In this document: positions 7,687-63,059 of the stretch, piece after piece
Numbering within the stretch: position 1 is the first letter of the stretch
How the letters are laid out: each line of letters begins with the position of its first letter
Assembly (NCBI GenBank): GCA_963722255.1
Contig: CAVRJO010000002.1
Location: 64,001 to 128,000, forward strand
Length of the DNA stretch: 64,000 nt
Direction of reading: 5' to 3'
Source of the DNA: Candidatus Babeliales bacterium
Lineage (GTDB): Bacteria > Babelota > Babeliae > Babelales > JANWKD01
Notes under the pieces: model-generated
The model's database searches: none
What the model was told of the DNA's origin: nothing
Seen by the model: only the letters and a program-made list of their open reading frames with translations
Position numbers and translations under genes: made by a program

Positions 7687-8835
7687 TTAATACTCAACAT
7701 CATCTCTTCTATTTTGGTCAGAAGGCAAAAGCCATTGTGGGTTATTAGATAGGATAATTCCTGTACCAAAAAAAGTAACAAAAACGCTTGTCCCCATACC
7801 AGCCACAAAATAAAACTCAGTGGTGCAAAACTGACTTAATAAATATATTTCTCCAATAAACAGCGATAATCCCATATATATCCAGATTTTAAAGAAATAA
7901 TCTCTGAGTTCCTGTGTTGCATGAATCTTATCTGTAGCACTCTCTAATGACAAAGGGAATGCCCTGTCTAATGTTTTTTTAGCTTCATTCGTTAACATAT
8001 TGCTCTTTAGCTTCAACTTTGCTCGATCTAAAGCAATAAATTTTGATATCTGTTTTATTTTGTTATTCTCAAGATCCAAAAAAAAGTATTCTGGCAATAG
8101 ATCGACCATAGTTATTTTTTTTATTCTATTATTACCTACTTTCAAAATTCTTAGTTTGCTAAAAGAGGCAATTATTTTTTTTATATTAATTCTTTTTAAA
8201 AAGTTATTATTTAATTTGATCTTCACTATGTGTTCATTATAAAGCGACTCTGAGAGTGCTTTAACTCCTTTAAGTGTATCAAGTTCTTTGCGAGCTAAGT
8301 TAAGACACAATTGATCATCTTCATCATCACCAATTTTTTTTAAATACACTATTTTTTTTTCCGGCAAAAAATAATTATCATCAATTAAGCTTTGAATAGA
8401 GTTAAAATATGCTCCATTTTTAACAAACTCATGTTGATTACTTTTCGGAATTTTTTTTCGTACAAGCAATGTTAATAATCGTAAAAGAGGTCGTGGAGCC
8501 TCAATATAAAATGCGGCTTCAAAAACATCTTGGACATCGACTAAAGTATCATTACATCGAGAGTTATCTTCAATGCACTGGAATACTTTGTTTAAAACAG
8601 ACGCATGCAAAAAACTATTTTCTCCTTTGAAACTTACATCATATACTTTTTCTTCTTGACCTTGAGCATCAGATAACACATTACAAAATAAACCGCATTG
8701 CGAGGCGACAGATTTAGGTGTTGCAAATAAATTACCCACGTTATCCTGAATTATCACAGAGGATCGTGTAATTTCTTCCATAGAAATAATAAAGCTTGGA
8801 ACTGATAGCAACAGGATCAATAAACCATATTTCAT
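7687..8835 (-). CDS. Secreted protein with Skp1/BTB-like domain, leucine-rich repeats and C-terminal membrane helices
   Basis: Signal peptide; 'VIIQDNVGNLF..PKSVASQCGLFCNVL...VLNKVFQ...VFEAAFYIE' resembles Skp1; LRRs (IKLNNNFLKRI, LKVGNNRIKKI, LDLENNKIKQI); two hydrophobic C-terminal segments. Confidence 0.7.
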   Translation of the reverse strand: MKYGLLILLLSVPSFIISMEEITRSSVIIQDNVGNLFATPKSVASQCGLFCNVLSDAQGQEEKVYDVSFKGENSFLHASVLNKVFQCIEDNSRCNDTLVDVQDVFEAAFYIEAPRPLLRLLTLLVRKKIPKSNQHEFVKNGAYFNSIQSLIDDNYFLPEKKIVYLKKIGDDEDDQLCLNLARKELDTLKGVKALSESLYNEHIVKIKLNNNFLKRINIKKIIASFSKLRILKVGNNRIKKITMVDLLPEYFFLDLENNKIKQISKFIALDRAKLKLKSNMLTNEAKKTLDRAFPLSLESATDKIHATQELRDYFFKIWIYMGLSLFIGEIYLLSQFCTTEFYFVAGMGTSVFVTFFGTGIILSNNPQWLLPSDQNRRDDVEY

Positions 8836-8860
8836 AAAAATGACCTTTACAAAATAAAAA

Positions 8861-9646
8861 TCAAAATTTGAAATTCCCTTTATACGTTACATCAGAATAG
8901 TCGCAGTAATATTTTTTAACTATTAGATAGGTAGTTATAGACAAAAAACAAAAAGCTAATGCTCCGCGTCCAATTATTACGTTATCAACATATCCATCTA
9001 GCCCATGCGTTACATAAAGAAGAAACGCTCCAAATGCAAAAAATGTACGTACTTGCTTTATATCATCAAAAATATGTAATGTTTGATCCAACTTACCAAA
9101 ACGTTCCAACCAAGGACGACTAAAAGAGAGTTTGATGTTTTTTTTAGATTTATCAGTCAGCTCAAAATTTCCTTCAAAGTTGCACGAAGCACCTTCATCA
9201 ACAATAAAAGTTGTGATATCTCTAATCTGATTTTGCATCAACTCAAGATTAAATTTATTTGGTAATGTATCTATAATAACTTTTTCAACTCCACTAGCAT
9301 TAACCTTCAACTCCTGTAAATAGGGAAATAAATCAAGAAATTTTGTCAGATTAATTTTCTTCAAATTATTATTGCTCAAATCAATGCTATTAATTATGTA
9401 TTCACATTTTTTTTTAAGCAAAGATAATTCTTTTAAGCTGCTAATATCACAATCAACTAGATTCAAACAATTAAATCTTTGACCATGCTCGCGTTCAATG
9501 GTTGTAAGATGGCTATCTTCTGAAAAACTGGAAAAAAATGTCCCAATACTTTTAGATGCTTCTGTAAGCTTTTCTTTTTCCATGTTAAATAATATTGAGC
9601 TGCTCGATAAAAAGATGAATAAAGCCAAAGCCACGCTATTTTTCAT
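8861..9646 (-). CDS. Secreted LRR protein with C-terminal membrane helices (paralog of 7687-8835)
   Basis: Signal peptide; IDLSNNNLKKI, LELMQNQIRDI; two C-terminal hydrophobic segments. Confidence 0.75.
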   Translation of the reverse strand: MKNSVALALFIFLSSSSILFNMEKEKLTEASKSIGTFFSSFSEDSHLTTIEREHGQRFNCLNLVDCDISSLKELSLLKKKCEYIINSIDLSNNNLKKINLTKFLDLFPYLQELKVNASGVEKVIIDTLPNKFNLELMQNQIRDITTFIVDEGASCNFEGNFELTDKSKKNIKLSFSRPWLERFGKLDQTLHIFDDIKQVRTFFAFGAFLLYVTHGLDGYVDNVIIGRGALAFCFLSITTYLIVKKYYCDYSDVTYKGNFKF

Positions 9647-9707
9647 ACAGATGCTTTCATAGTTTTTATTGTATATTTATAGAAAGCAGTATTGCATATT
9701 ATTGCAC

Positions 9708-9737
9708 AAAAAAGAAGGCGCTCAATGCGCCTTCTTT
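9708..9737. terminator. Rho-independent terminator
   Basis: AAAGAAGGCGC-tcaat-GCGCCTTCTTT with A-tract, downstream of 9772-10014(-). Confidence 0.75.
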
Positions 9738-15802: not shown

Positions 15803-16435
15803 AGTTATAACGCCCCCGTAGACCGGGGGGCTTGACGGCTGTTAGCAGTCCCAAGGACTGCCAGATTTAACTTTGACTATATTTTAAAATTGACCTTCTT
15901 CATCAAAACCTTGGCTATCCAGCTGTTCTTGATTTTTCACGTAGGCTTTAACATTCTCCAATTCATGACCTACTGTTGAAACCGCATATCCCCTTGCCCA
16001 AAACTTCTCGCCATTAAAATTTTTTTGCCGACCGCCAAATTGTCGCGCAACTGCAATCGCACTTTTACCTTTTATATATCCAACTATCTCTGCTATTGAA
16101 TATTTCGGCGGAATACTTATCAGCATATGCACATGATCTTGTACCATGTGGCCTTCCAAAATCTTACTTTCCCTTTGTCCTGCCAATTCATGAAATACTG
16201 GTCCTAAGAATTTACGAATTTCTCCATAAAGTTTCTTTTTTCTATATTTTGGAACAAATACAATATGGTATTTGCAGTTAAATTTAGAATGGCTTAAACT
16301 TTTAAATGATGTTTCCATATATATTTTTTTTCGAGCCGTCACGCCCTAAAAAAATATATCATTGGAAACATTTTTTTTACACTTGAATCTAAAGGCCTAG
16401 CCTTGAAAGTCTCACTAGTCAAACTAGTGGTTTAC
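15803..16435 (-). mobile_element. IS200/IS605-family element, tnpA only, 633 bp
   Basis: Left end GTAAACC with hairpin CACTAGT-caa-ACTAGTG (16413-16429); right-end GC hairpin 15812-15831 ending TAACT; no target duplication, as expected for this family. Confidence 0.85.
15884..16318 (-). CDS. tnpA: IS200 Y1 (HUH) transposase
   Basis: CKYHIVFVPKYR, DHVHML (HUH), FWARGY and catalytic Tyr in YVKNQ. Confidence 0.95.
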   Translation of the reverse strand: METSFKSLSHSKFNCKYHIVFVPKYRKKKLYGEIRKFLGPVFHELAGQRESKILEGHMVQDHVHMLISIPPKYSIAEIVGYIKGKSAIAVARQFGGRQKNFNGEKFWARGYAVSTVGHELENVKAYVKNQEQLDSQGFDEEGQF

Positions 16436-16779: not shown

Positions 16780-17367
16780 TTAATATTTAATAATTTTTTC
16801 AGCACACATTTCAGCTGCCAAAGAAAGATACGACCAAATTTTGCTGTAATATTGTTCTTTATCAATTAATATCTCAGCAGAATTACCAATTTTTTCAGCG
16901 ATCATTTTTGGAATATTGTTTAAGTCATCTTTAGTAGTAAGCCCAGCAATATCAAGTACAAATTGGTCTACAGAATGTTCGCGTTCTATAAGGGCATAAC
17001 AATAATCTATAACGAATCGTGTATCAATAAACTTTCGATCTAATCCATAATAAATAACTTTCCATTGTTCAATAGTTTCAAGTTCTATTATTTTTTTTAT
17101 TAAACAATCTTTATTTTTCACAATTAAATTTTCGTCATCATATAAACGAAAGTCAGATTCTTTAATAAAATACCCTTTAAAATACTGATGTAATTTCTCT
17201 TTAAAACAATTAAAATGTGACCAAAAGGTTTGATTAGTTCCCATTTTATTAATTATGTCTTCATTCAAAGAAACATTAATCATGACAGGATCAGTTGTAT
17301 TTTCAATTATTTTTTGATTACAAAAACAACAACGGAATCCAAATTTTTCATCAAATTGTCCATCCAT
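16780..17367 (-). CDS. Putative immunity protein (Cys/His N-domain plus DUF2247-like C-domain)
   Basis: Start overlaps the toxin 3' end; CCFC...HFNC motif; 'WKVIYYGLDRKFID..VIDYC' resembles DUF2247. Confidence 0.6.
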   Translation of the reverse strand: MDGQFDEKFGFRCCFCNQKIIENTTDPVMINVSLNEDIINKMGTNQTFWSHFNCFKEKLHQYFKGYFIKESDFRLYDDENLIVKNKDCLIKKIIELETIEQWKVIYYGLDRKFIDTRFVIDYCYALIEREHSVDQFVLDIAGLTTKDDLNNIPKMIAEKIGNSAEILIDKEQYYSKIWSYLSLAAEMCAEKIIKY

Positions 17368-20300
17368 AATTTTCACCTAAGTTTTTAATTTTTTTCAAAG
17401 CAAGGTCTTTCATCGCACTGACAACTTCTTTGGCTTTTTCATTGATTATCATAATAGCATATTTTTCATTAAATTTCTTAATATATACATCTGCACCATC
17501 CCTTTGTACTCTTCTAAAATCAGGGTTTTGAACAAGCTCTTTTATAATATCTGGAGTAAAACCTCTTTCAATTAATCTTTGTAACCCATGTTCAGTAACA
17601 TTAATAATTTTTTTAATTTCATTAGCTTGATGTTCATAAAGCCCCTTAGCTTCTTCACTTTGGAGCTCGTTTTTTAATTTTTCAAATTTTTCTGGACAGC
17701 TTGGCGGACATTCTGCAATGTTATTTTGCACTGTTTCTTTGGCTGCCAGTCCTTTCTCAGCAATAACTTCAGCAACTGCGGCTTGAGAAAGGATTGCAGT
17801 TGAAACTCCAGGATTAACAACAAGAGGCTCAGAAACAGTTGTTGGCAATGCAGATTCTTTTGCAACTGCCCTAATCGCTTGTTCTGCTGTATTTTCTACA
17901 GCTGCAGGCAGCCTGCTTTCAGCAGCACCTTCAACAAGCGCAGCAAAATTGAAAGAAGTCGATGGTCTAGGATTGTCACATACCTCAACAGTTATTACTT
18001 GAGGCCTATAAGGAATATTTCTAAGTGTTCTGTGATATTTGGCAAAATTAAATGTTTTAAATGCCCCTGCAATTGAAAGATAATCCACAAAACCATCGAT
18101 GGCGATTTGAGCAAACAATTTTTGACGTTGATCTATTGATAGATTATTAAAATGATGGTGAATTCTTGTTAATTCTGTAATTGGCGTTTCACCGGATATC
18201 AATTCATGAGTGGTTTGAACTAATATTTTAACTGCGTTATCAATTTTTCTATATTTTTCAAGAAAAGGTAGATCAGATGATGCTAATGTGCCTATCTCGT
18301 CACATTTTTTGACAATTACTTGAACAGATCGAATCATAGTTGATGCTTGTCTCTTGGGAAATTCACATAATGCACCAAAAATAGCATCAAATCGCCTTTG
18401 TGAATACCCTAATGGATTGGAAACCGTATCAACAATTTCATTGCCAACTGCTTTTGCTAATGATATGGGATTTAGAAACTCAAATAAGTCTTTTATCTCT
18501 CGAGCAAGATCTGTATAGTTTCTTCTATTTAAATCATAAGCAGTTTTAAAAAGCTCTTGTTGCATTTCGCGAACATGAGGCGCAACTTCAATGCCAAGAT
18601 TAGAGGCATTTTCAATAGCTTTAGAAAGGGTTTTATGGAATTCCTCTTGTTCAGCACTTCCTTTAAAATCATTATATTCATTGGGATTAATACCGATCTG
18701 ATTAAGAAAATCATTGGTGCGGTTAGTTTTAATCAAATCCAACGAATCAAGAGAAGGCTCTGCTAGATTAATTGTAGGATCGTAGGCTTCCGGTTCAATA
18801 ACAGTTTCCGTATCAGCAAAAGTTAGATTATTAGTTTTGAACACATTTGGCTTTGAAGCAAATTCATTATCAGGACCTTTTAGGTTTTTTTCTTCCTTTT
18901 CATGTGCCCTTTTATGTTGTTCGCCTCTATTGCCTAATGATTTATTAAATGATTTATTAACAGATGTTTTCTTTTTGTCCTTGTATTTATCTTTATTTAC
19001 TTGCAGCATATTAGTAAATAAATTAACTACGGGATTAAGATATAAATATTTTAGCCTTTCAAATGCTGCTTTATCGCTATTAAGTTCATAACCAATGTGT
19101 TTAAATCGTTCCTGAATTTCTCGTTTTTTCTTTATTTTAGCGATTCTTGCTTTTTTAAGTTGCTTACGCTCTGATTTTAGTTTTTTTGCTTTTTTTTCTT
19201 CTTCTTCTTCATATGCTCTTTTATATCGTTCACTGATACTGTCTAACGATTTATTAACCTGTGCCTTCTTTTTGTCCTTGTATTTATCCTTGAGCAGTTG
19301 TAATCGATTTGTAAATATGTCAAAAAAAGTAATATTGTTATCAATATCAGCTTTTTTTTCCTTTTTGATATTTTTGTAATCATCAGAATAAAGTAACGCT
19401 TGATCTTCTTGAGAAATATATTCATGTTCTAAACTTCTACGCAGAGCAAGTTGTTCAGGATTTAAATCATCACGAATTCTTAATTGGTGCAAAATGGTTT
19501 GCTCATACTCGCTTTTAATGTGATTAAATCGTTCTTCTGTTTGATTAAAATCATTTCTGCCATAACTACTATCATTGACCGCATCATTTAATGCTTCTCT
19601 ATAATGCTCAGGAATTCTATCATCATTTAAAAAATCACCAATATTTTTACACACATTTGATACCCTAGCCGCTTCTTTAATTCTCTTTTCCTCTTCATAA
19701 TTGGGCCAATCCATATTGTCTAATCCCATATGCGATTCTGGCGTATCATCATTATCTCGAGCAGGAGCTAGCTTTCTGACATTCATCTGTTTTGATTGAT
19801 AAGATCTTTGCGTGCTAGTTGGAACTTGTTTTGGCACATTAGTTGAGGGCGAAGAACATATAGTTTCAAATTCACTTTCGTCAATTTCTATAGATTGCGT
19901 TGCCCTTGGAGATGATTCATTCCTTGAATTTGGCAATGAGGAATATTGCATTGTTTGATTGCCACCTGTATAAGGGCGAAGATTTTCGTAGATAGCAGCA
20001 CGAGATACATTACTCGGTACAGCCTTAATAACATTTGATTTTGGAGAATCATTATTGCTAGAATAGGTGCTAGGGCCGCTTAATGAGCCGCTATCACTTT
20101 TTTGTTCATTTATTTGTTTCTTTTCTAACGGTACAGGATTTTTTACAGGAGCAGGAACAGTCTTATTCTTATGATAAGCATCTCTTGCTCGTTTCCCCTG
20201 TCCCGCCTTTCTTTTATTATACTCTATTGCACTTTCTAAAGTTGCTACATCATAGCCAACTGTTCCTCCTGGCCCCGGAGGAAGATTTAAAGGATCTATA

Positions 20301-20746
20301 GAACTTTGCCCTTGCTGTATTGCATTTTTGCAAATATTTTCATGCTTATTGCGAGCGATCAAATTTTTTATAGCCTCATCATGCGATTGAGCATTGGTAG
20401 TTTTCTGAAATAATGAAGGTAAACGATTATCTTCTCTTACAGTTTTTTCATGTGTTTGCGACTCTTGAGAATCATCTTCGGAATATATTTCTAATTGATC
20501 GACAGATTCTAAACCGAGACTCGTCTCTATTATTTGATTTTCAGTCAAAATGGGTCTTACTGTTATTTCAAAATTATCCTTAGAAACCTCATTTACTGTA
20601 ACATCATAAGGAACTCTTGTTTGAGAAGTAAAAAGCTTTTGAAAAAAGCTCTTGTCATCTTTTGGCGTCTCTTCCATTCCAAAGCAAAAAAAATGATAAG
20701 AAATAACAGTTGCTATACAAAAATAGTTATTGAAAAATCGAGGCAT
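17351..20746 (-). CDS. Secreted polymorphic-toxin-like protein with C-terminal RNase-like (DUF4258/BECR-type) domain
   Basis: ATG at 20746 with GGAG RBS; signal peptide; C-terminal 'TEHGLQRLIERGFT...QRDGADVYIK...IIN...EVVSA'; overlapping small downstream gene. Confidence 0.7.
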   Translation of the reverse strand: MPRFFNNYFCIATVISYHFFCFGMEETPKDDKSFFQKLFTSQTRVPYDVTVNEVSKDNFEITVRPILTENQIIETSLGLESVDQLEIYSEDDSQESQTHEKTVREDNRLPSLFQKTTNAQSHDEAIKNLIARNKHENICKNAIQQGQSSIDPLNLPPGPGGTVGYDVATLESAIEYNKRKAGQGKRARDAYHKNKTVPAPVKNPVPLEKKQINEQKSDSGSLSGPSTYSSNNDSPKSNVIKAVPSNVSRAAIYENLRPYTGGNQTMQYSSLPNSRNESSPRATQSIEIDESEFETICSSPSTNVPKQVPTSTQRSYQSKQMNVRKLAPARDNDDTPESHMGLDNMDWPNYEEEKRIKEAARVSNVCKNIGDFLNDDRIPEHYREALNDAVNDSSYGRNDFNQTEERFNHIKSEYEQTILHQLRIRDDLNPEQLALRRSLEHEYISQEDQALLYSDDYKNIKKEKKADIDNNITFFDIFTNRLQLLKDKYKDKKKAQVNKSLDSISERYKRAYEEEEEKKAKKLKSERKQLKKARIAKIKKKREIQERFKHIGYELNSDKAAFERLKYLYLNPVVNLFTNMLQVNKDKYKDKKKTSVNKSFNKSLGNRGEQHKRAHEKEEKNLKGPDNEFASKPNVFKTNNLTFADTETVIEPEAYDPTINLAEPSLDSLDLIKTNRTNDFLNQIGINPNEYNDFKGSAEQEEFHKTLSKAIENASNLGIEVAPHVREMQQELFKTAYDLNRRNYTDLAREIKDLFEFLNPISLAKAVGNEIVDTVSNPLGYSQRRFDAIFGALCEFPKRQASTMIRSVQVIVKKCDEIGTLASSDLPFLEKYRKIDNAVKILVQTTHELISGETPITELTRIHHHFNNLSIDQRQKLFAQIAIDGFVDYLSIAGAFKTFNFAKYHRTLRNIPYRPQVITVEVCDNPRPSTSFNFAALVEGAAESRLPAAVENTAEQAIRAVAKESALPTTVSEPLVVNPGVSTAILSQAAVAEVIAEKGLAAKETVQNNIAECPPSCPEKFEKLKNELQSEEAKGLYEHQANEIKKIINVTEHGLQRLIERGFTPDIIKELVQNPDFRRVQRDGADVYIKKFNEKYAIMIINEKAKEVVSAMKDLALKKIKNLGENYGWTI

Positions 20747-20905
20747 GCAAAAACTCCATTTATAAAACACTAAGAGAAACTTTAATGCTTCATTTATTGT
20801 AAATAAAGCATTATATAATGAACCCCAGAAACTTGACACGATAAAATTAAAAATGTGTTAGTTTTTAATGAACATGAAAGTGAACATTATTATCGGGGAA
20901 TTTTT

Positions 20906-21181
20906 ATGGCAAGAAGATATAAAAAACATAGTAGTTCATTCAAAGCAAAAGTAGCTATAGATGCTATTAGAGAACAAAAAACTTTAAACGAACTAAGTCA
21001 GGAACATAGCATTGCTCCTGCACAAATCTCTATCTGGAAAAGACATGCTGAAGAAAATATGAGCAACCTTTTTGAGGGGAAACAAGAAAAGGACCAACAA
21101 GAGGAAATTGATAGGCTTTATCGAGTAATTGGTCAAATAACGGCAGAGCGTGATTTTTTAGAACGCTCGCTCAATCGATAG
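20906..21181 (+). CDS. IS3 transposase OrfA (HTH)
   Basis: HSSSFKAKVAIDA...QISIWK...IGQITAERDFL. Confidence 0.9.
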   Translation: MARRYKKHSSSFKAKVAIDAIREQKTLNELSQEHSIAPAQISIWKRHAEENMSNLFEGKQEKDQQEEIDRLYRVIGQITAERDFLERSLNR

Positions 21182-22083
21182 ATTTAAAGCAGCGTAAGGA
21201 AATGGTTGAGTGTGTAAATGAAGCAATAGACTTTAAAAGAAAATGTGAACTTTTAGATGTATCGAGAGGATCGATGTATTACAAGCCTAAACCTCAAAAA
21301 AATAATGATGCAATTATTATGAATGAGCTACGTGAAATTTATCAAGAAACGCCTTCCTATGGCTATCGGCGCATGACAGTAGCTTTAAGAGAAAATGGTT
21401 TTTTGGTTAATCATAAAAAAGTCTTTATGTTGCTTAAGATAGCGGGCATCCAGGCCATTTACCCTCGCAAAAAAACAACCATACGAAATCAGGGGCACAA
21501 AGTATTTCCTTATTTATTGCGTGGGTTGCTTATTAATCGACCAAATCAGGTTTGGCAAGTAGATATAACCTATATAAAAATACGGGGTGGTTTTGTATAT
21601 TTGGTTTGCTTAATTGATGTTTTTAGTCGAAAAATCATGGGATGGAAATTGTCAATTTCTCTTGATACAGCGTTATGCATAGAGGCGTTCAATAGTGCTT
21701 TGCAACATGGTATTCCAGAAATTGTTAATAGCGACCAAGGATGTCAATTTACCAGTGCTCTGTGGGTTGAATTAGTGCAACAATATGGAATTCAAATAAG
21801 TATGGATGGTAAAGGAAGATGGGCAGATAATGTTTATATTGAGAGGCTTTGGCGTACGATAAAATATGAGATGATACATTTGCATAGCTTTGATACAGTT
21901 CAACAGGTAAGAGATGCGCTTGCAAGTTACATTGTTTTTTATAATACACGACGTTATCATTCAAAGCTTAATTATCACGCACCAGACGCTATTTTCGCAA
22001 AAAAAATTATTCCATCTAAAAAAGAATTATTCGAAAGTTTTATAGCTTCACAAATTTATAAACTTGGAGCCGCTATGATTTAA
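21154..22083 (+). CDS. IS3 transposase OrfB (DDE), joined to OrfA by -1 frameshift
   Basis: WQVDITYI, NSDQGCQF, DNVYIERLWRTIKYE; the -1 frame opens exactly at slippery T-TTT-TTA (21154-21160). Confidence 0.9.
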   Translation, partial: FFRTLAQSIDLKQRKEMVECVNEAIDFKRKCELLDVSRGSMYYKPKPQKNNDAIIMNELREIYQETPSYGYRRMTVALRENGFLVNHKKVFMLLKIAGIQAIYPRKKTTIRNQGHKVFPYLLRGLLINRPNQVWQVDITYIKIRGGFVYLVCLIDVFSRKIMGWKLSISLDTALCIEAFNSALQHGIPEIVNSDQGCQFTSALWVELVQQYGIQISMDGKGRWADNVYIERLWRTIKYEMIHLHSFDTVQQVRDALASYIVFYNTRRYHSKLNYHAPDAIFAKKIIPSKKELFESFIASQIYKLGAAMI

Positions 22084-26935: not shown

Positions 26936-27573
26936 TTATTTTTTCAAATGTGAAAGATAATAAGCAGCCATCGCAGCAGCTGATAAGTGCCAAGCAGCAT
27001 GTGGCCAAGTTTTACCTTTATATTGCCCTAGGTACACATCTAAAAGATTAATTGCTCCTACCGCTACAGGAAGGGCCAGAAGATGTGGATTTTCTTTAAG
27101 AACTTGGTATTCTCTTGCAAGCTTCAAAAGAGCAAATGCAACCCCAATTCGATCAACATACAAGAGCCATTGTTTTGGACAACTATGATAAGCAAATGAA
27201 GCTAAACCAGCACATATAATTTCAGGTGATTGATATTTTAAACCAACAAATATTAAACCCCATATTAGAAATAGCACACCAGAATTCTGATATATAGGGA
27301 GTCACATTGTACCAATCTTCCCGTTGAGTTGCAGGCTCAGCTAAACGATTAAAAAAGCCTGTATTGTCCTCATCTTTTGGACTAGACCAATAACCCTCTC
27401 CACGACTAAATGGTGCTTTAAATCCTTTGCCTCGATCGCAGATATCCTATGAATTTATTGTAGTTTTTTTGAAGAAAATTCTTATTATTTGTTGGAACTT
27501 CTTCTGGCTTCATTTCTAAAGCAAAGCTTGAGATGAGTACGAATGATAATGATAGTAATAATAACTTAGACAT
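26936..27573 (-). pseudogene. Alkaline-ceramidase/CREST-superfamily membrane hydrolase with two frameshifts
   Basis: ATG at 27573 with GGAGG RBS; three consecutive frames give signal peptide / YNVTPYISEFWCAISN / GLASFAYH, YVDR, HAAWH. Confidence 0.75.
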
Positions 27574-27794: not shown

Positions 27795-29093
27795 CTAGCT
27801 ATTTTTTTGTGCTTCAAAAGTATCAAAATGAGCATTAAGGATCTTTTTCATTTCTTCGGTTAATTGCTTGAATTCAACCATTTGTTCTCTAGAAAAAAGA
27901 ATTGGAATCCCTGCCTGCTTACAATACGGTAGAAGCAATGCAACAAGTGAAACATCATTTTCCTCGATAAGTTCACCCAAAACATCGCATTCTGCGATAT
28001 TTTCCAGAATTCGCGCACCTCTATCAAGCAGAGATTTCACAATGATGCAGTTCCTACTATCCATAAGTGCGCGATATAGGGCACTGTCCATTTCACCCTC
28101 AACATTTGTGGATGCACCTTTTTCTAATAACCAATTTACTAGAGATACAAAACCATATGATGCTGCATAACAAAGCGGTGTTTTATCCGATTCATCCAGC
28201 CCATTGAGTTGCTCTGGAAATTTTTTATAATAGATTTTTACAAGTTTTTTGTTCTGAGTGCGTACTGCACAATGCAATGCTTCATAACAGGTCATCCCGC
28301 GATCAAGCAATAAGCGAGCAATCGCTACTTGACCGCATAACGTTGCTTCATATAAAGCTTCAAATTCACCTAACTCACCAAGCCAAGAATGATCTTCATC
28401 ATGTTTAAGCAAAATTTTGATATGTTCTAATGCTCCGGCTCGTATTGCATTCACAAATCCTTGCTCTAAATCATGAAATGAAATATCTTTTCGATCTATA
28501 ATGCTTTTTAAATAATTTATATCTCCACCTGCACAAAGAGATGGTATCATTGTTGAATCAAAAGCACTCTCAATCACTTCAGCATATTTTAAAGCTCTTT
28601 CACCTGGGATTGCTAAAATAAATTTCAATAACTGATCATGATCATCTTGTTCCATGCGATCTTCAGGAACATAAAGAAGTTCATAACAATCAAGATGCCC
28701 TTGTTTAGCTGCAACCAAAATGGGAGTTTCATTCCATTTATTTCTTGGACGCCTATGGACTCCTAACTCCAATAAATAGGCCACAATATTTTCATTACCT
28801 AAATAAGCAGCAGTATGCAAAAGCGTATCACCATTATGATTTTTTTGTTGTGCTATATGAACAGCGGCTGCGGTAGGCAATGATTGTAAAACTCTTAATG
28901 TTTTCTTTACATTCCGATTTCCCTGTTGATACCCGTAAATTTTTTTTGCAGCTATTTCAGTTAACTTGGGCACATTAAAATGATTTGTTATTTCTAGTGC
29001 ATAAGTTTTTTTAGAAACATGCTCCTCTTCTTCCATTGCTGTAAGCAACGATGATATACCCAAAAAGATTACAAGAAAAATAGTAGATAGCAT
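27795..29093 (-). CDS. Secreted ankyrin-repeat protein
   Basis: Signal peptide; GDTLLHTAA, ETPILVAA, KTPLCYAASYG...LLEKGA. Confidence 0.9.
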   Translation of the reverse strand: MLSTIFLVIFLGISSLLTAMEEEEHVSKKTYALEITNHFNVPKLTEIAAKKIYGYQQGNRNVKKTLRVLQSLPTAAAVHIAQQKNHNGDTLLHTAAYLGNENIVAYLLELGVHRRPRNKWNETPILVAAKQGHLDCYELLYVPEDRMEQDDHDQLLKFILAIPGERALKYAEVIESAFDSTMIPSLCAGGDINYLKSIIDRKDISFHDLEQGFVNAIRAGALEHIKILLKHDEDHSWLGELGEFEALYEATLCGQVAIARLLLDRGMTCYEALHCAVRTQNKKLVKIYYKKFPEQLNGLDESDKTPLCYAASYGFVSLVNWLLEKGASTNVEGEMDSALYRALMDSRNCIIVKSLLDRGARILENIAECDVLGELIEENDVSLVALLLPYCKQAGIPILFSREQMVEFKQLTEEMKKILNAHFDTFEAQKNS

Positions 29094-29983: not shown

Positions 29984-30009
29984 ACATACTTTACTAATTT
30001 TTTTTACTA

Positions 30010-36243: not shown

Positions 36244-37836
36244 ATGAATCACCCGCTTAAAAGATTTTTATGCATTGCATTATTTGCTTCCGTAGCAGTG
36301 ATGTATGCGTCTGATGAAGATTGTTCATCAGCAAAGACTTTTGGGCACACCTTTTTTAGTCAACGTCCTCAATGGTCAAATTTAGCACGAAGATTAGTTG
36401 GTGTAACCGAATTTCTTGTACCCTGTGATATAGATTGCCTAAATGGATTTCTAGCATTTACACCAGAATATACTCGTTCATTTGATCGTGACGAAATTGG
36501 AAAATTCCTCTTCTACAACGGCACTAATAAAATGACGTTTGGTGCTGCTGGAGCAACCGGTGTCGATGTTTTTGCACGAAACTTTTTCCTCAATGATGAT
36601 TTTAATGGCATCTTGACAGCGCTTCCTCGCGTTGAAAATGCCCTATTGGATATTCAATTTAGATTAAACTTAGATGAATGGATTTGTGGACTCTATTTTG
36701 ATATTCATGCACCTATAAACTGGACTCGTTGGAGTGTAAATTTTTCTGAAAATATTGTCTCTATAGGCACAGATATTGCAGCATTTGCTTTAGGAAATAC
36801 CACGGCATTTCCTTCGCCTGTTACGAGTATTTTAGCAGCATATAATGGTCAACAATTAGACACCATAGACTTCCCTGATCTTAAGCAAGTATTGCAGTTT
36901 GGTAGAGTCGATACGTCCGATGCTATGGATAGTCCAACTCCTGAAGCAAGCGGACAACAAACAAAAACACGCTTAGCTGATGTTGAAACCGCGCTTGGAT
37001 ATAACTTCCTTTGTGATGAATCGTATCACTTAGGTGCCGATTTTCGTGTAGTATTTCCTGCAAGCAATCGACCTAATGCTATGTTCTTATTTGAACCCGT
37101 AGCTGGTAATGGAAAACATTATGAAATTGGTGCCGGTGTTTCAGCACATTATGAATTTTGGAACAACTGCTGCGATTCATCTTTCACCGTATGGGCGGAA
37201 ACGAATTTATATACCGTATTAAAAGGTCGTCAACGTCGTATCTTTGATCTTAAGAATGCCGATGGTACACAAAATATTGGAAGTAGTCGTCTTTTAATTA
37301 AAAGATTTTCAGGCGCACCAGCCGCCCCTTTATTGCAAGAGATTCTTTATGGACCAAATGTGCTAGCCTTAAGTTGCAAAGTAAGAAATGCCTTGCATGC
37401 TGAAGCTGCAGTTCTTTTTGATTATTATCGTTGTGGTTTCACACTGGATACCGGTTATAATTTGTGGACTCGGACAGCAGATAAAATTAGCGACATCGAA
37501 ACTATTTTACCAAACACCTTCGGACTTGCCGGTCAAACATTAGGAACCGGTGGAGCTACAGCAAATAATACCGGCAGCACAGCAAAGATTAATGGTACAG
37601 GCGGAACAGCCGATCCAACAAATGTTTATATAAGCAATGATTCACTCTTTATTGACTCTGCGGCTCATCCACGAGCAATTTCACACAAATTTTTTGCACA
37701 TGCAAGTTATGCGTGGGAAAATTGTGACTATACACCATTTTTAGGAATCGGTGGTGAAGCTGAATTTTCGGGCAATAAAAACTTTGCCCTTGACCAGTGG
37801 GGAATTTGGATTAAAGGAGGCTTTGCTTTCTCATAA
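36244..37836 (+). CDS. Cys-rich putative outer-membrane beta-barrel protein (paralog A)
   Basis: AAGGAG RBS, signal peptide, alternating beta-strand pattern, FLFEPVAGNGKH motif, C-terminal WGIWIKGGFAFS. Confidence 0.7.
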   Translation: MNHPLKRFLCIALFASVAVMYASDEDCSSAKTFGHTFFSQRPQWSNLARRLVGVTEFLVPCDIDCLNGFLAFTPEYTRSFDRDEIGKFLFYNGTNKMTFGAAGATGVDVFARNFFLNDDFNGILTALPRVENALLDIQFRLNLDEWICGLYFDIHAPINWTRWSVNFSENIVSIGTDIAAFALGNTTAFPSPVTSILAAYNGQQLDTIDFPDLKQVLQFGRVDTSDAMDSPTPEASGQQTKTRLADVETALGYNFLCDESYHLGADFRVVFPASNRPNAMFLFEPVAGNGKHYEIGAGVSAHYEFWNNCCDSSFTVWAETNLYTVLKGRQRRIFDLKNADGTQNIGSSRLLIKRFSGAPAAPLLQEILYGPNVLALSCKVRNALHAEAAVLFDYYRCGFTLDTGYNLWTRTADKISDIETILPNTFGLAGQTLGTGGATANNTGSTAKINGTGGTADPTNVYISNDSLFIDSAAHPRAISHKFFAHASYAWENCDYTPFLGIGGEAEFSGNKNFALDQWGIWIKGGFAFS

Positions 37837-40898: not shown

Positions 40899-40918
40899 AG
40901 CAATAAATCCTTTAACAA

Positions 40919-41935: not shown

Positions 41936-42144
41936 TTCCCCTTTTTCCCACCGCATACTCTTCATGGCTTATCCTCTGTATGAATAAATCTTGCTATCAT
42001 TATTACTAATAATAACAAATAATTGTTTTGAAAATCAATATTTATTCAAATTATAAATAAATAATTCCTTCCATGAAATAATCATTCAAAATTCAAGTTA
42101 TTGGCTTCTTAAGCCATCAAACACCTAAAAAATGATTTTTTTAT

Positions 42145-43143
42145 TTATAAACTTTCTGCTTTTCTCAAATAAGCTCGTAAGGTAATCAACAAAATTTGCG
42201 CAGAAGTCCATAATAAAAAAGGAGGCTTTATAGCTTGGGATGTTGTCAATTTAATTATACTCCTGCTTGTATAGGTGTCACTAGCAGGATACAATGAGTA
42301 CAAATCGTTAACTATTGTTTGTGCGACCAAGATCTGATCCTTAGAGAGGGGCTTTTTTGAAAAAAATCCTTTAGATTGATTTAGTAACTCCTCCAATAAG
42401 TTAATCACCAAAGTCGCTTTTTGTTGTTGCATTTCATAGGTTTCATCTCCATCTAAAATAGAAGATGCGGTAAGAGCAATAACTATATTTCTCTCTTTAG
42501 ATTTATCAGTATTAGTTTTAAGTATATTAAGATAGGTATTAAAAAACTCATTCAGAGAAAAATCTATATTTTTGGACTCTCTTTTATAGGCTTCAAGAGC
42601 TTCTTGTGCTGATTTATGTGGGAATCTTTTTACAAGAGGCAGTAAATATTTGTTATAATTATCCAAATAAACAGCTGTTACTGATTTTATGTTATGACCT
42701 ACTAAATTTATAAATAGTCCTTTTTTTAATGGTTTTGTATTAATAATTTCAGAAAAATTTCCTATCATATCTATATTAGAAACCTCTAAAAGTTTATTAA
42801 CAGCCCCTTCATACTCTGAGGCTTTTTTAACATTGAATTTAGACAATTGAATCCAGCTTTTAAAACTTAATAAAAAATATTCCCATGGCATTAGATCATC
42901 TTCCTTTAAGACTGGGATTATTGGATCATCACTCAAAAGATTTTTTAAGCTAGTTGAAGCATCTTTAGTACCGCCAAAAACTTTAAATCCAATATTTTGA
43001 ACATAATCATAGAGCTGCTGATCATTCTTATTTTTTATTACCTGAATATAATTTTCATTATTTTCTTGGAGTGCAAATTGCATGTTAAAAATACCAACGA
43101 AAATATAAAAAACTATTAGATAATTTAGAACTTTCATAAACAA
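42145..43143 (-). CDS. Secreted helical orphan protein (member 5)
   Basis: Signal peptide; INLLEELLNQSK...LYP...KP..L shared with member 1. Confidence 0.8.
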   Translation of the reverse strand: MFMKVLNYLIVFYIFVGIFNMQFALQENNENYIQVIKNKNDQQLYDYVQNIGFKVFGGTKDASTSLKNLLSDDPIIPVLKEDDLMPWEYFLLSFKSWIQLSKFNVKKASEYEGAVNKLLEVSNIDMIGNFSEIINTKPLKKGLFINLVGHNIKSVTAVYLDNYNKYLLPLVKRFPHKSAQEALEAYKRESKNIDFSLNEFFNTYLNILKTNTDKSKERNIVIALTASSILDGDETYEMQQQKATLVINLLEELLNQSKGFFSKKPLSKDQILVAQTIVNDLYSLYPASDTYTSRSIIKLTTSQAIKPPFLLWTSAQILLITLRAYLRKAESL

Positions 43144-43189
43144 TCCTTTTATTTTGTATTAATCAACTTATATTTTATTATGATAAAAA

Positions 43190-44510: not shown

Positions 44511-46028
44511 ATGAAGCACAGAGTTCCAAAACTGTATTATTTAGTCTTTCTTACAACACTATTTTCATCATCGCTAATTGCTGATAATGAAGGCGATGAC
44601 CACCGAGATACCTTTGGCATCAGTTTTTTTCATGCTCGCTCGATTGGATCAAATAAAGCTCGCGAAAGCGCCGGTTTGGCAAATCTTATTACTTGGGGTT
44701 ATGATGAATGTTCTCATGGACTATTCTGGGCAACAGGAGAATATTCGAGCTCATTCAATCAACATGGACTAGGCCAGTATCTCTTTTTTAATGGTAGCAA
44801 TACCATGCTAACAGGAACAGCAGCGGGACCAGGTGTCGATATATTTAGTGAAAACTTCTTATTAAATGATAATTTTTCAAGTGCAATAACCGCACGTCCC
44901 AATGTTACCTATGGACTTATTGATCTCAATCTATTCTATTCATTGGACTTTTTATGCAACGGTCTCTATTTTCTTGCTCATGTTCCCTATGTACAAACAT
45001 CATGGTCGGTTGACTTTAAAGAAACAATCAGCTTTACAGGAACTATAATTTCAGCAAATGATCTTGGGAACCCAACAGATACTCCGGCACCTTTTACTTC
45101 ATTGATTGCTGCTTGGAATGGTCAGGCAACCTTTTTTGATGTTAAAGAACCATTACGTTTTGGGCGTGTTTGTGGCAAACGCAAAAAAGCTCGTCTTGCT
45201 GATGTTGAACTTGCCTTAGGCTACATCATTCTTAACGATGAATGTAACTATTTTAGTATTAATGTACGCGGTATCATACCCACCGGTAATACACCAAAAG
45301 GTAAATTTCTGTTTGAACCTATTGTAGGTAATGGTCACTACGGAGAAGTGGGTGCAGGAATTTTAGGAAACTTCTTTATCTGGGAAGGTTGTTCTGATGA
45401 TTATTTAACCATTTTTGTTAATGCAAACATTTATACTATGCTCAGTTCACGCCAACAACGTACCTTTGACCTCACCGCCAATGGACCCGGCAGCCGTTAT
45501 CTTCTTTTCAAAAGATTTGTTAATAATCTGTATGCGGGTGAAATTGTACGTGGGCCAAATATATTAACCCTTCCTATTCATACCAAAAATGCTGTTCACG
45601 GTGATTGCGTTCTTATGGTTGAATACACTCGGTGCGGTTTTATTGCTGATGGTGGCTATAATCTTTGGGGAAGAACTCGTGATCATATCGAACTTGCCGG
45701 TAAAATTCCTGCTAATACCTATGGTGTCGCCGGTTTGAGTGGAACAGGAGTAAATGCTAATTTAACGGCAAGCCAAACCTTACTTAATGGAACAAATGCA
45801 AACCTAATCGATGCAACTCCAATATTTATATCAAATGCTAACATTAATATAAAATCTGCTGCACACCCCGGAAGCTTTTCCCATGGTTTCTTTGTTCATC
45901 TTCAATATATATGGGATAAAAGATATGCTAAACCCTTTGTAGGATTTGGTTCAGAGGTAGAGTTTTCAGGGACCAATAAATCTCTCTTATTATGGCATAT
46001 TTGGGCTAAAACAGGTATCTCTTTTTAG
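44511..46028 (+). CDS. Putative outer-membrane beta-barrel protein (paralog B)
   Basis: Colinear with 36244-37836 (TFG..FF, F.NG.N.M, GVD.F..NF.LND.F, RLADVE.ALGY, FLFEP..GNG, SAAHP); C-terminal F. Confidence 0.72.
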   Translation: MKHRVPKLYYLVFLTTLFSSSLIADNEGDDHRDTFGISFFHARSIGSNKARESAGLANLITWGYDECSHGLFWATGEYSSSFNQHGLGQYLFFNGSNTMLTGTAAGPGVDIFSENFLLNDNFSSAITARPNVTYGLIDLNLFYSLDFLCNGLYFLAHVPYVQTSWSVDFKETISFTGTIISANDLGNPTDTPAPFTSLIAAWNGQATFFDVKEPLRFGRVCGKRKKARLADVELALGYIILNDECNYFSINVRGIIPTGNTPKGKFLFEPIVGNGHYGEVGAGILGNFFIWEGCSDDYLTIFVNANIYTMLSSRQQRTFDLTANGPGSRYLLFKRFVNNLYAGEIVRGPNILTLPIHTKNAVHGDCVLMVEYTRCGFIADGGYNLWGRTRDHIELAGKIPANTYGVAGLSGTGVNANLTASQTLLNGTNANLIDATPIFISNANINIKSAAHPGSFSHGFFVHLQYIWDKRYAKPFVGFGSEVEFSGTNKSLLLWHIWAKTGISF

Positions 46029-52828: not shown

Positions 52829-53593
52829 TTACATAGGTATTCCAAAGTGGCAGGTAACACCTTTAAGATTCTCATCATATTCACATTCAAGAGATTTAGG
52901 TTTCAAAAGCTGAATAGCAGCATCATCATGTTTTACTTGTGCATAATCTAATGCTGTTTTGCCTTGATTATTTTTTAAATTTACATCAGCACCATAGGTA
53001 AGAAGTAAGGTAATAACACCAAGATTTTTATTATTGCTATTTCTCATTACTGCATACATAAGCGGCGTCATGCCGGCCTTATCTTTGAGATTAGGATCCG
53101 CGCCAAAATCAAGCAGCTTATGAGCAGCATTAGTTAACCCTGAGCGAGCGGCTAAATGTAAAGCGGTTAATCCATCTTTATTTACACCATTTGGATTTGC
53201 ACCCTTTTTAAGGAGATATTCCATAACATGAAGATATCCCCCCAGCAATGCGGCCATTAAGGGCGTTGCATTAAATGGAACCTTAGAAAATTTCACCGTT
53301 CTTGCTTCATTAAGTGCCCCAATAGGAATATCAACGCGCTTACCGGCATAAAGATCAAGAAAAAATCTATCTCGTGGATCAATTACCTCTTTAAGCTGCT
53401 TCTTTTTTTGCATTCTTTTTGCTTGGCTAAATAAACTTTGCGCTCGGCTACTTAATGTTTTTACAATACTTTGAGAGGCTCTCCAACTTGCAAGAAACTG
53501 CTTATCTTCCTCTTCCTTGTTTTTTTTAACAGCTTCTTGACAGAAACTGATACTCATTAAGCCTATGACTATGGCAATGACTCTTTTTTTCAT
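52829..53593 (-). CDS. Secreted ankyrin-repeat protein
   Basis: Signal peptide; TPLMAA, GLTALHLAA, GMTPLMYA, GKTALDYA. Confidence 0.9.
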   Translation of the reverse strand: MKKRVIAIVIGLMSISFCQEAVKKNKEEEDKQFLASWRASQSIVKTLSSRAQSLFSQAKRMQKKKQLKEVIDPRDRFFLDLYAGKRVDIPIGALNEARTVKFSKVPFNATPLMAALLGGYLHVMEYLLKKGANPNGVNKDGLTALHLAARSGLTNAAHKLLDFGADPNLKDKAGMTPLMYAVMRNSNNKNLGVITLLLTYGADVNLKNNQGKTALDYAQVKHDDAAIQLLKPKSLECEYDENLKGVTCHFGIPM

Positions 53594-61317: not shown

Positions 61318-61399
61318 TCCTTATGTAGCATGGTTAGAAGATCTTCACCTACTCTACTTGGTAAGGTAGCATGAGAATGAGAGAGAATAAAATAGTTAA

Positions 61400-61440
61400 A
61401 ATAAAAAGACCCCCGTTGTAGAACGAGGGGTCTTTTTATT
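61400..61440. terminator. Rho-independent terminator
   Basis: AATAAAAAGACCCC...GGGGTCTTTTTATT. Confidence 0.75.
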
Positions 61441-61460
61441 TATTTTTATATAAAAAAATT

Positions 61461-63059
61461 TTATTTAAATTGATTTATAATCGTGTAAAGCATTTGGCCT
61501 AGAAAATAACCAATGAACCCTTTTGGCTCAACTTTTAAGCCATAGTCCTTACATGCACGCTTAACTGCTTTAATCATATTCTCAACATTATTTTTGTCAG
61601 CAATTTCTAAATTTTGTGGAACTACTACATCAAGATCACAGATCGAATCAAACATGTTTTTGATTTCTTGCAACAAGTTACTAAGTATTTGTTTATCTTT
61701 AAAATTTAATCCTTGAAATTGATCTTTTATGTCTTCAAGCACATGATACAATTCATTTGTATCATAAGCTTTTTTAAGATCTTTTTTAATACGTACGAGT
61801 TCTTTCGATTCCTCAGCATACTTTTGTGGTTCAAAAGATACATTCACAACCAACTGCTTCATAATTTGGAGATTTTTTTCAAATGGTCTATACGCTTCTA
61901 AAATTCCGGAATAAACTTTTTTCAAGCCTTCTACAAAAATATCATTGACTTGGCTCTCAAATTCCTTTATTACATATTCTTTTCTCTCACCAAGCTTTTC
62001 AGGAGCTTCAGCTTCTTTTTCAATTTTTTCTTCAGTCTTTTTTACTTGATTTTCAGCTGTTATTTCATTGAATTCTTCAAACTTCAATAAATCGTTTACA
62101 ACCCTAGCCTCTTTTTCAAGTTCTTTAACTTCCGGAGCAGCTTTACCTAATCTTTGAGTTGCTTCTTCAAGATCTTTTTTTAATCTTGCTATTTCTTGTT
62201 TAGTATCGATAAGATCTATTTGCAACTCATCAACTTTATTTCGTTGCTCCTTTAAAAGTTCTTCAGAATCTTTACGGAAATTTTCATTATCTTTTTCCAA
62301 CTCTCTTGCTGTGTTATCCAGTGCATTATTCCTTTCTAGCACTTTTTTTAGAAGGGCAGCTTGTTCCTTAGAACCTGCTCGCACCTTAGTTAATTGATTT
62401 TCATATTCATCAATTTCTTCTTTTAAACTTTCAATTTTTTCTAAATTTTTTTGCTTTTTTCTCATATCTTCAGCTATTTTTGCTTCAATTGCTTCAACTG
62501 ATCTTCTTCTTGCAGCTTCTGCTCTTGCTTGACGTTCAAAACGAGCTGCTTTTGCTTTGGCAAAAGGTGTATTTGATGATCTTAACTCCGCTTGCACTCC
62601 TGCCATAATACGTGCCAACTTAGATTTTCGTTCTTCAGATGTTTCATATGCTTCTTCACTAAGCAATTTATTTAATTTGGGCAAAATTCTTCGCAATTCA
62701 CCAAGATTCTTTATCAAAGATTCTTCTAAAGCTATTTGCCTAGTAGTAAACTCAGTAAAAGCCTGTTCTTCGTATAAACGGCTCACCTCTCTAAGCAAAT
62801 CGCTTTTTAATTTATTTCCCTCAATAATATTAAATTGTACTACAGTCTCTATTGGCTCATTTTCTTCACGTGCAACTTCAACAAGTGGATCATACCATTT
62901 AGTAATTATCTCTTCCCATGTTTTTTGAGGAAATTGTTCTGATGAAGGATAATATTGTTTAACAAGCTCAACAAACTTTTCTCGACCTCTTTCTTCCATC
63001 CCATAAGCCATCCCAGTACTCAACACCAGAAAAAGACTTAATACTTTCCAATAGTTCAT
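61461..63059 (-). CDS. Secreted coiled-coil hypothetical protein
   Basis: MNYWKVLSLFLVLSTGMAYG signal peptide; long E/K-rich heptads. Confidence 0.8.
   Translation of the reverse strand: MNYWKVLSLFLVLSTGMAYGMEERGREKFVELVKQYYPSSEQFPQKTWEEIITKWYDPLVEVAREENEPIETVVQFNIIEGNKLKSDLLREVSRLYEEQAFTEFTTRQIALEESLIKNLGELRRILPKLNKLLSEEAYETSEERKSKLARIMAGVQAELRSSNTPFAKAKAARFERQARAEAARRRSVEAIEAKIAEDMRKKQKNLEKIESLKEEIDEYENQLTKVRAGSKEQAALLKKVLERNNALDNTARELEKDNENFRKDSEELLKEQRNKVDELQIDLIDTKQEIARLKKDLEEATQRLGKAAPEVKELEKEARVVNDLLKFEEFNEITAENQVKKTEEKIEKEAEAPEKLGERKEYVIKEFESQVNDIFVEGLKKVYSGILEAYRPFEKNLQIMKQLVVNVSFEPQKYAEESKELVRIKKDLKKAYDTNELYHVLEDIKDQFQGLNFKDKQILSNLLQEIKNMFDSICDLDVVVPQNLEIADKNNVENMIKAVKRACKDYGLKVEPKGFIGYFLGQMLYTIINQFK

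Follow-up and report, generated by a model that had tools for sequence, protein, structure and literature searches.

A large part of the proteome carries signal peptides in bacteria of the phylum Dependentiae, and the sole secretion system detected there is type II-like. In Babela massiliensis, a predicted signal peptide is found on 79 of the 126 ankyrin proteins according to passages of the genome description (PMC4378268), and passages on Chromulinavorax destructans assign signal peptides to 44% of its coding sequences, a set enriched in ankyrin proteins and orphans (PMC6561590). In term searches of the text passages of PMC6561590, PMC4776705 and PMC4378268, supplementary tables aside, no mention of a conserved residue after the leader was found. 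Here we describe such a residue, a Met that directly follows an N-terminal hydrophobic leader and is itself mostly followed by Glu. The analysis started from a stretch of 64,000 nucleotides of a Candidatus Babeliales bacterium of the amoeba-parasite type (assembly GCA_963722255.1, contig CAVRJO010000002.1, positions 64,001 to 128,000), hereafter called the window. The signal-peptide-bearing ankyrins of Babela and Chromulinavorax resemble the tagged proteins of the window in phylum and in their leader-ankyrin architecture.

The genome that holds the window measures 1.62 Mb in 2 contigs, has a G+C content of 34% and is 93% complete. The original prediction had named five proteins of the window in which Met-Glu follows the leader and had proposed that this N-terminus marks effector-like proteins. 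We found that the Met-[E/N/Q/D] junction is selected, class-specific and clade-restricted. The tag may bear on how host-directed and envelope proteins are told apart and on the survival of effectors in the host.

Results

Enrichment of the Met-Glu junction

All five leader-then-Met-Glu N-termini are present in the window, and all lie on the minus strand (Table 1). To place them in the whole genome, we used a set of 1,582 non-overlapping open reading frames (ORFs) of at least 80 amino acids (aa). An N-terminal uncharged hydrophobic run is present in 601 of them (loose leader set). In 119 of these 601 ORFs, the uncharged position immediately ahead of the first charged residue is occupied by Met, a residue with a frequency of 2.2% (p ~1e-73). 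These 119 leader-Met proteins were picked without conditioning on the residue at −1, and 88 of their junctions are the dipeptide ME. The enrichment does not depend on a leader filter, as ME occurs 162 times at residues 17–36 when none is applied, compared with 30.3 occurrences expected from positions 57–116 (p ~5e-63).

A strict filter was then used to define carriers. It requires a Met at index 14–40 with A, S, G, C, T or N at −1, no acidic residue among the previous 12 residues, a hydrophobic window of 8 residues, and 8 hydrophilic residues after the Met. The combination of leader, Met and hydrophilic start was found in 199 of the 1,582 ORFs, about one gene in eight. When the same filter was applied to all 20 residues at +1, Met was the commonest, with 5.6 times the frequency-normalised mean. 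The +2 residues of the 199 carriers include E (101), N (31), Q (16), D (10), K (10), T (5) and S (4), and the bias towards E/N/Q/D at +2 appears only when +1 is Met. The enrichment over background is thus very large, and the observation is confirmed as real and much larger than the five cases that were cited.

The signal-peptide filters are home-made, and the strict one errs in both directions. The strict filter misses about 7 ankyrin proteins in which leader and Met are recognised by eye, and hence the true number of carriers is probably above 199. Its false passes include the 941-aa secretin, whose junction is PT followed by MNNT and is not conserved in 19 orthologues, and a Pal-like OmpA lipoprotein; a sigma-54 activator and a PALP protein are probably false cases as well. 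The set of signal-like ORFs without Met is contaminated by cytoplasmic proteins such as DNA polymerase I, UvrD, glutamine synthetase and transposases, and for this reason we state no fraction of all secreted proteins.

Signal peptide, cleavage site and start codon

The residue before the Met is A, G, S, C or T in 112 of the 119 leader-Met proteins (A 45, S 25, G 19, C 14, T 9), against a background of 26%. At −3, L (34), S (18), I (16), A (14) and V (10) prevail. The strict set of 199 gives a similar picture, with A (72), G (42) and S (41) at −1 and L (63), S (33) and I (29) at −3. Lys or Arg occurs among the first 8 residues in 108 of the 119 proteins. The leaders are 16–33 residues long with a mode at 19–23; their hydrophobic core is required by the filter and is hence circular as evidence. 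Glu is enriched 2.5-fold across positions +2 to +13. The Met therefore sits at +1 of a site that follows the (−3,−1) rule, adjacent to the predicted cleavage site as the original prediction supposed, and signal peptidase I most likely cuts directly before it, as judged from these residue patterns. Two Peptidase_S26 genes are present in this genome.

Other types of leader do not fit. As regards lipoproteins, +1 is Met by definition, and Cys at −1 occurs in 14 of the 119 proteins, by eye without a lipobox context. Proteins with lipoprotein-like leaders, namely an FKBP protein and the Pal-like OmpA protein, have no true Met junction. Type IV prepilins and pseudopilins possess a short charged leader that is cut between G and F or M, with a hydrophobic segment after the cut and Glu at +5. 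In the leader-Met proteins, the hydrophobic segment instead lies ahead of the Met, which is trailed by 8 hydrophilic residues.

The Met might also be the real start of translation. Shine-Dalgarno (SD)-like motifs of at least 4 nucleotides lie upstream of 1% of the 199 internal ATGs and upstream of 38% of their leader starts. For comparison, such motifs precede 33% of 498 confident starts of long genes and 5% of 6,114 in-frame ATGs deep within genes. Alternative start codons show no meaningful excess at +1 positions that pass the filter (TTG 19% versus 16%, n = 160; GTG 20% versus 12%, n = 61). The SD pattern and the lack of a TTG or GTG excess contradict a start at the second Met; the junction Met is not a start codon.

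Proteins that carry the junction

A Pfam scan covered all 199 strict-filter carriers. Ankyrin proteins (16) and WD40/beta-propeller proteins (12, two of them with Skp1_POZ) are the most frequent, followed by J-domain (4), C2H2 zinc finger (3) and Sel1 (1) proteins. A few enzymes are also carriers (GNAT, methyltransferase, thioredoxin, kinase-like and RNase III-like), and about two thirds of the carriers have no Pfam family at all. The tag is thus spread over protein families that are not related to each other and over orphans specific to the lineage. A six-frame search with Ank_2 returned 33 ORFs, of which 17 were flagged by the strict filter; among the others, inspection by eye shows leader and Met in about 7, a leader that lacks the Met in about 6, and no leader in 2–3.

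On the side without Met, 311 leader-like ORFs have no further hydrophobic segments and 105 do have them; the Pfam scan covered the 244 longest of the 311. The envelope housekeeping proteins in this set comprise BamA, a second POTRA protein, the 798-aa secretin, SurA- and PpiD-like rotamases, HtrA, MlaD and Skp, together with an M15 peptidase, the FKBP lipoprotein and a solute-binding protein. The junctions of envelope housekeeping proteins are ordinary (...IMA/EQ, ...VDA/QP, ...VKA/DD), and by eye their −1 residue is almost always Ala. Several secreted-looking enzymes also have ordinary junctions, namely an ADP-ribosylglycohydrolase, NADAR, a PAF-acetylhydrolase, an FMN reductase and UCH.

We defined the effector-like class as leader-bearing ANK, WD40, J-domain, C2H2, Sel1/TPR, UCH and DOT1 proteins. 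The Met is present in 36 of 51 members of this class; among envelope housekeeping proteins and secreted enzymes, 4 of 28 have it (Fisher p = 1.5e-6). The link between tag and effector class, as originally predicted, holds, yet it is not absolute.

Some carriers and their neighbours in function deserve mention. The three leader-Met C2H2 zinc-finger proteins (L067:13664-14818, L072:5578-6276 and L039:19422-19883) are unusual for bacteria and suggest effectors aimed at host nucleic acids or the nucleus. In four small leader-Met J-domain proteins (L018:17184-17966, L041:17475-18215, L014:17689-18300 and L042:2345-2950), the J-domain begins 13–20 residues after the Met. One of these four was searched against a large protein database, and no close homologues were found, with generic DnaJ matches only. 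Eukaryote-like genes without the Met junction also occur: a DOT1-like histone methyltransferase domain (L022:10569-11279), a leader-bearing UCH deubiquitinase (L045:11529-13382), a Ku domain (L049:6390-7202) and an NCA2-like domain (L003:13832-15403).

Distribution and conservation in the order

We compared 100-kb samples of 12 relatives by the strict filter. Samples from the same family contain 16 (G001), 13 (G003) and 22 (G004) carriers. Genomes of three other families contain 11 (G020), 11 (G022) and 9 (G028), and in the first two of these the +2 residue is more often D or Q. Six further relatives have 0–3 each. Leader-bearing ankyrin proteins occur in the low-motif relative G010 and in G020, which was likewise grouped with the low-motif relatives in this respect.

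For a wider survey, the pattern 'MK … A/G-M-E' was searched in DNA. It gave 52 matches in this genome, compared with 5 and 5 for two scrambled controls. A scan of 81 genomes gave 50 matches in this genome and 0–7 per genome for a reversed-pattern control. Strong signals (30–72 matches) were found in 11 genomes, 15–29 matches in 7, and 14 or fewer in 63. All 81 genomes belong to one order and are not independent samples. This family, with five genomes in the scan, supplies four of the 11 strong ones; a second family has a strong signal in each of its five genomes, and two other families supply one apiece. The fifth genome of this family is 64% complete and has 8 matches. The low counts are not an effect of genome size, because genomes of 1.5–1.9 Mb with low counts exist.

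Carriers are fast-evolving. Most of those sampled from a sister species have no BLAST match in this genome, and the 382-aa protein of the window (ORF 7687-8835) has one paralogue in the same genome, its sole relative in a search of 5.8 billion proteins. Nevertheless, the Met is kept in 6 of 6 inter-genus homologue pairs that could be aligned from the N-terminus (24–40% identity). A noisier set of 74 homologue pairs (at most 60% identity) shows 54% identity at +1, compared with about 33% at the flanks. The leader is absent altogether in 20 of 133 carrier homologues. One pair from different genera, L025:1233-1913 and a 134-aa ORF of G004, differs in length and shares the first 20 leader residues from MEVSMKT on, and both then have the junction ...VKA/MET; this leader is more conserved than most effector bodies.

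Export machinery

This genome encodes two secretins and two ATPases of the type II secretion system (T2SS)/type IV pilus (T4P) type. The genes for the 798- and 941-aa secretins lie close together (C1:854187-861474), and the pair is present in 30 of 30 relatives searched; a secretin is thus found in 31 of 31 genomes. The N-terminus of the 941-aa secretin is not conserved. Two gspD copies in each of seven TM6 genomes are reported in passages of Yeoh 2016 (PMC4776705), and type II is the sole secretion system detected in Babela according to passages of PMC4378268. One marker family each for type III, IV and VI systems (FHIPEP, CagE_TrbE_VirB for VirB4, and VipB) gave no match in the 93%-complete genome.

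No bacterial component that tracks the motif was found among LepB and the second POTRA protein. The latter, an Omp85/POTRA protein considered as a motif-linked exporter, occurs in 66 of 81 genomes (E <= 1e-10), including the low-motif genomes G016, G009, G010 and G005, and was rejected. As for signal peptidase, 2–3 Peptidase_S26 matches were found in 7 of 7 motif-bearing genomes first examined and a single one in 3 of 6 low-motif genomes. In a tree of 20 LepB sequences, however, the duplicates form lineage-specific sister pairs and no shared 'motif' clade. G014, which is 99% complete, combines a single LepB match with a strong motif (32 pattern matches versus 1 in the control). In view of the tree and this single-copy genome, we rejected a dedicated second signal peptidase as a requirement. 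Separate duplications of signal peptidase I have taken place in five or more lineages of the order, some of them in tandem, and a deep split separates LepB forms of about 290 aa from forms of about 400 aa with an N-terminal extension.

Features of the window

The positions of the junctions and of the counter-examples are given in Table 1. The ankyrin-repeat assignment of ORF 27795-29093 is backed by a Pfam match (Ank_2, E = 1.1e-27). The other names given earlier to the five proteins fared less well. For the ORF called 'Skp1-LRR' (7687-8835), Skp1 was not recovered, and the leucine-rich repeat (LRR) matches in Pfam are sub-threshold only. The 'LRR' ORF 8861-9646 has no Pfam match, and the 'toxin' 17351-20746 has neither a Pfam match nor a sequence match in PDB. 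All Pfam matches of the coiled-coil-like ORF 61461-63059 are sub-threshold. The GTG at 20839, the longest-ORF start of 17351-20746, is probably not the real start.

The proteins said to lack the Met do lack it: the fibre-like ORF, the two proteins resembling outer-membrane proteins (OMPs), the ankyrin protein that starts at 53593 (Table 1) and the Cys-rich protein at 15292. This is also generally true of the six-gene tandem family (37919-44281, minus strand), with the exception of ORF 42145-43143, which is a borderline case (...IFN followed by MQ). Most members of this family have a leader followed by Cys within a few residues (...HGVC/DEK, ...HGEC/TFK, ...ESKC/TKE, ...MYAVC/TPD) and resemble lipoproteins or Cys-anchored envelope proteins. 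The leader of the 'ceramidase', cited for its LEMK junction, exists as described but sits on a short ORF. The 'ceramidase' gene (26936-27573, minus strand) is probably broken, because this leader ORF ends in a stop and the next one, a membrane-like 113-aa ORF (26936-27277), lies in another frame.

A tRNA gene was detected at 29912-29983 on the minus strand (Rfam, 60 bits), and the overlapping plus-strand ORF of 134 aa (29873-30277) is probably spurious. Insertion-sequence sites lie at 15884-16342 (minus) and 20855-22083 (plus), and the IS3-like pair adjoins the large 'toxin' ORF. The genome is rich in insertion sequences. It has three or more additional copies of IS200-like Y1 transposases; Pfam scores are identical among three DDE transposase ORFs of 345 aa, and likewise among three IS4/5-type ORFs of 250 aa.

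Table 1 Leader junctions and counter-examples in the window (positions in nucleotides of the window)
Feature	Position	Strand	Remarks
Leader MKYGLLILLLSVPSFIIS then ME, 18 aa, ORF 7687-8835	8782..8835	-	Met-Glu codons 8781-8776
Leader MKNSVALALFIFLSSSSILFN then ME, 21 aa, ORF 8861-9646	9584..9646	-	Met-Glu 9583-9578
Leader MPRFFNNYFCIATVISYHFFCFG then ME, 23 aa from ATG 20746, 1131-aa ORF 17351-20746	20678..20746	-	Met-Glu 20677-20672
Leader MLSTIFLVIFLGISSLLTA then ME, 19 aa, ankyrin-repeat protein 27795-29093	29037..29093	-	Met-Glu 29036-29031
Leader MNYWKVLSLFLVLSTGMAYG then ME, 20 aa from ATG 63059, coiled-coil-like ORF 61461-63059	63000..63059	-	Met-Glu 62999-62994
Borderline leader then Met-Gln, ORF 42145-43143	43084..43143	-	Passes strict filter; −1 is Asn; start codon TTG
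Counter-example ankyrin, leader MKKRVIAIVIGLMSISFC then QEAV, without Met	52829..53593	-	N-terminus read
Counter-example OMP-like protein, ...VMYA then SDED, without Met	36244..37836	+	N-terminus read
Counter-example OMP-like protein, ...SLIA then DNEG, without Met	44511-46028		N-terminus read
Counter-example fibre-like ORF, ...NAYA then ESSA, without Met	3-7544		N-terminus read
...SFA then LEMK, Leu and not Met at +1, 51-aa ORF	27418..27573	-	Stop-terminated

Discussion

A possible role of the N-terminus in the host

We tentatively prefer the reading that the tag controls the fate of the effector in the host through an initiator-like, NatB-type N-terminus, and we place it ahead of an export signal for a second step; in both cases the function is inferred only. 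The proteins would be made with an ordinary Sec signal peptide, and signal peptidase I most likely cuts just before the conserved Met. The mature protein would then start with Met-Glu, or less often with Asn, Gln or Asp behind the Met; a hydrophilic segment rich in Glu would come next, ahead of the folded domain. Most products of signal peptidase expose a residue that the eukaryotic cytosol would treat as the end of a protein fragment. Tagged effectors would instead present an initiator-like Met with an acidic or amide residue behind it, as in the NatB class and not as in Arg/N-degrons. Such an N-terminus may be tolerated in the host and possibly acetylated, which would make the effector longer-lasting. 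Cleavage, delivery to the host cytosol and an effect on stability or acetylation are what we infer from the sequences.

The composition of the tag agrees with this proposal. NatB substrates begin with Met and then Asp, Asn, Glu or Gln, and E, N, Q or D at the second position keeps the Met in place, these N-termini not being Arg/N-degrons while Met-capped, according to passages of PMC11735805. The equation of Met-Glu with the NatB consensus, made in the original prediction, extends to the +2 spectrum of E, N, Q and D, which equals this substrate set; a NatB-type residue is found at +2 in 158 of the 199 carriers. The lineage pattern also fits a host-side role, because relatives with the same machinery, that is two secretins and the second POTRA protein, export ankyrin proteins without the motif. 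No component that tracks the motif was found, and a function in the host would explain this pattern without a change in the bacterial machinery.

Several points weigh against it. NatB is ribosome-tethered and acts co-translationally according to passages of PMC11735805, and a protein delivered after translation may hence never meet it. This makes acetylation in the literal sense doubtful, and it is safer to speak of an 'initiator-like, non-degron N-terminus'. Ala, Ser and Thr are also normal, stable N-termini in eukaryotes, so stability alone leaves the preference for Met unexplained. The Met is missing from some proteins whose action is expected in the host (the UCH deubiquitinase, the ADP-ribosylglycohydrolase, NADAR and about 6 of the 33 ankyrin ORFs), and a few carriers, such as the thioredoxin, are not effector-like. 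The home-made filter admits cytoplasmic proteins on the no-Met side and misses real cases. Finally, the argument from host dependence is indirect.

Alternative explanations

The tag might instead be read by the bacterium, with Met-[E/N/Q/D] and the acidic tail recognised in the periplasm and directing the protein across the outer membrane through a type II-like secretin system, in vesicles or along some other route, while untagged proteins stay in the envelope. Met-[Glu/Asn/Gln/Asp] would then be a linear, transferable address label that separates hundreds of host-directed effectors from the cell's own periplasmic and outer-membrane proteins. Both the export function and the label as such are possible but doubtful in our estimation. 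The division into effector-like and envelope housekeeping proteins speaks for them, as do the two secretins and two T2SS/T4P-type ATPases of the genome, the duplicate gspD genes noted above for TM6 genomes, and the location of the tag in a flexible N-terminal segment before the first domain begins, as in the J-domain proteins. By analogy, residues behind signal peptides serve as sorting signals elsewhere. With no match to FHIPEP, VirB4 or VipB in the 93%-complete genome, Sec-exported effectors would need some second step. However, 63 of the 81 genomes are at motif background, yet all 31 searched have a secretin; leader-bearing ankyrins occur in G010 and G020 among the 12 relatives sampled; and no part of the machinery was found to track the motif, the LepB duplications being lineage-specific and the second POTRA protein widespread. 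Type II substrates are generally thought to be recognised in the folded state, without a linear motif, and secreted-looking enzymes leave the tag out. A separate, peptidase-based explanation, in which a second paralogue of signal peptidase I requires Met at P1' and handles the tagged class only, would account for the multiple Peptidase_S26 matches in the motif-bearing genomes first examined and for a −1 position that is more relaxed in carriers than in housekeeping proteins. We regard it as very improbable: the duplicates form no 'motif' clade, the strong-motif genome G014 manages with one LepB, which largely refutes the paralogue as a requirement, and the low-motif genomes G005 and G018 also have two copies.

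The two remaining explanations involve start codons. A leader could have been added upstream of the original start, the old initiator Met being retained as a functionless scar. Many carriers are indeed young, lineage-specific orphans, 20 of 133 homologues are leaderless, and AT-rich upstream DNA would readily encode hydrophobic stretches. At +2 of the carriers, though, Glu makes up 50% and Lys 5%, whereas the second residue of ordinary starts is K in 25%, N in 12% and E in 4.7%. The retention of the Met between genera and its excess identity over the flanks, its position at exactly +1 of a (−3,−1) site in 112 of 119 proteins, and the lack of the motif in whole families of the order despite their leader-bearing effectors likewise make a scar unlikely. 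Alternatively, translation could also begin at the internal ATG and give, besides the exported form, a cytoplasmic isoform that lacks the leader. An ATG encodes the residue in every case, and 58% of the confident genes lack an SD-like motif, which means that SD-independent initiation exists. Nonetheless, SD-like motifs are far scarcer at the internal ATGs (1%) than at the leader starts (38%), TTG and GTG show no excess, ankyrin or WD40 isoforms have no obvious use in the cytoplasm, and no system for cytoplasmic substrates was found with the marker families searched. We consider a dual start highly unlikely.

The tag is a cheap predictor of the effector set, a mutable handle and a basis for a natural comparison of tagged and untagged lineages within one order. 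If the bacterium reads it, it touches on a long-standing question, the choice of substrates by type II-like systems; as an address label, it would give Sec-dependent effector export its first simple sequence signal for the second step, at the outer membrane. If the host reads it, effectors delivered after translation would practise N-terminal mimicry.

Comparison with known systems

Signals of similar function are known from other systems. The 'ASAFAP' motif, named in the abstract of PMC4329603, belongs to the bipartite plastid-targeting peptides of diatoms and other algae with complex plastids. As would be the case for the Met-Glu tag under the export reading, it is a conserved junction residue after the signal peptide that marks a class of cargo for a further membrane step. 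The Phe at +1 has the key role in this motif. The ASAFAP route is eukaryotic, however, and leads through the endoplasmic reticulum and the plastid; its key residue is aromatic and is followed by a transit peptide, and there is no homology to the Met-Glu tag.

In bacterial lipoproteins, Asp at +2 leads to Lol avoidance in E. coli, and an acidic stretch directs proteins to the surface and to vesicles in Bacteroidota. Here, too, residues just after the processed N-terminus decide the compartment. Lipoproteins expose a lipidated Cys generated by signal peptidase II, whereas the tagged proteins have Met at +1 and, by eye, no lipobox.

PEXEL of Plasmodium and RxLR of oomycetes are short motifs behind the signal peptide that mark proteins sent to the host, and the processed N-terminus is acetylated. 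These are eukaryotic parasites with another motif and a dedicated protease, and none is implied for the Met-Glu tag. Eukaryotic N-termini of the NatB type share the two-residue spectrum of the carriers. In eukaryotes, their Met is the initiator, and NatB works at the ribosome; in the carriers, a bacterial peptidase would expose an internal Met, apart from the translation of the host. As the Met-Glu tag is found mainly on eukaryote-like, host-directed proteins and is lacking from ordinary envelope proteins, it appears to be a so far undescribed label for the address or fate of effectors.

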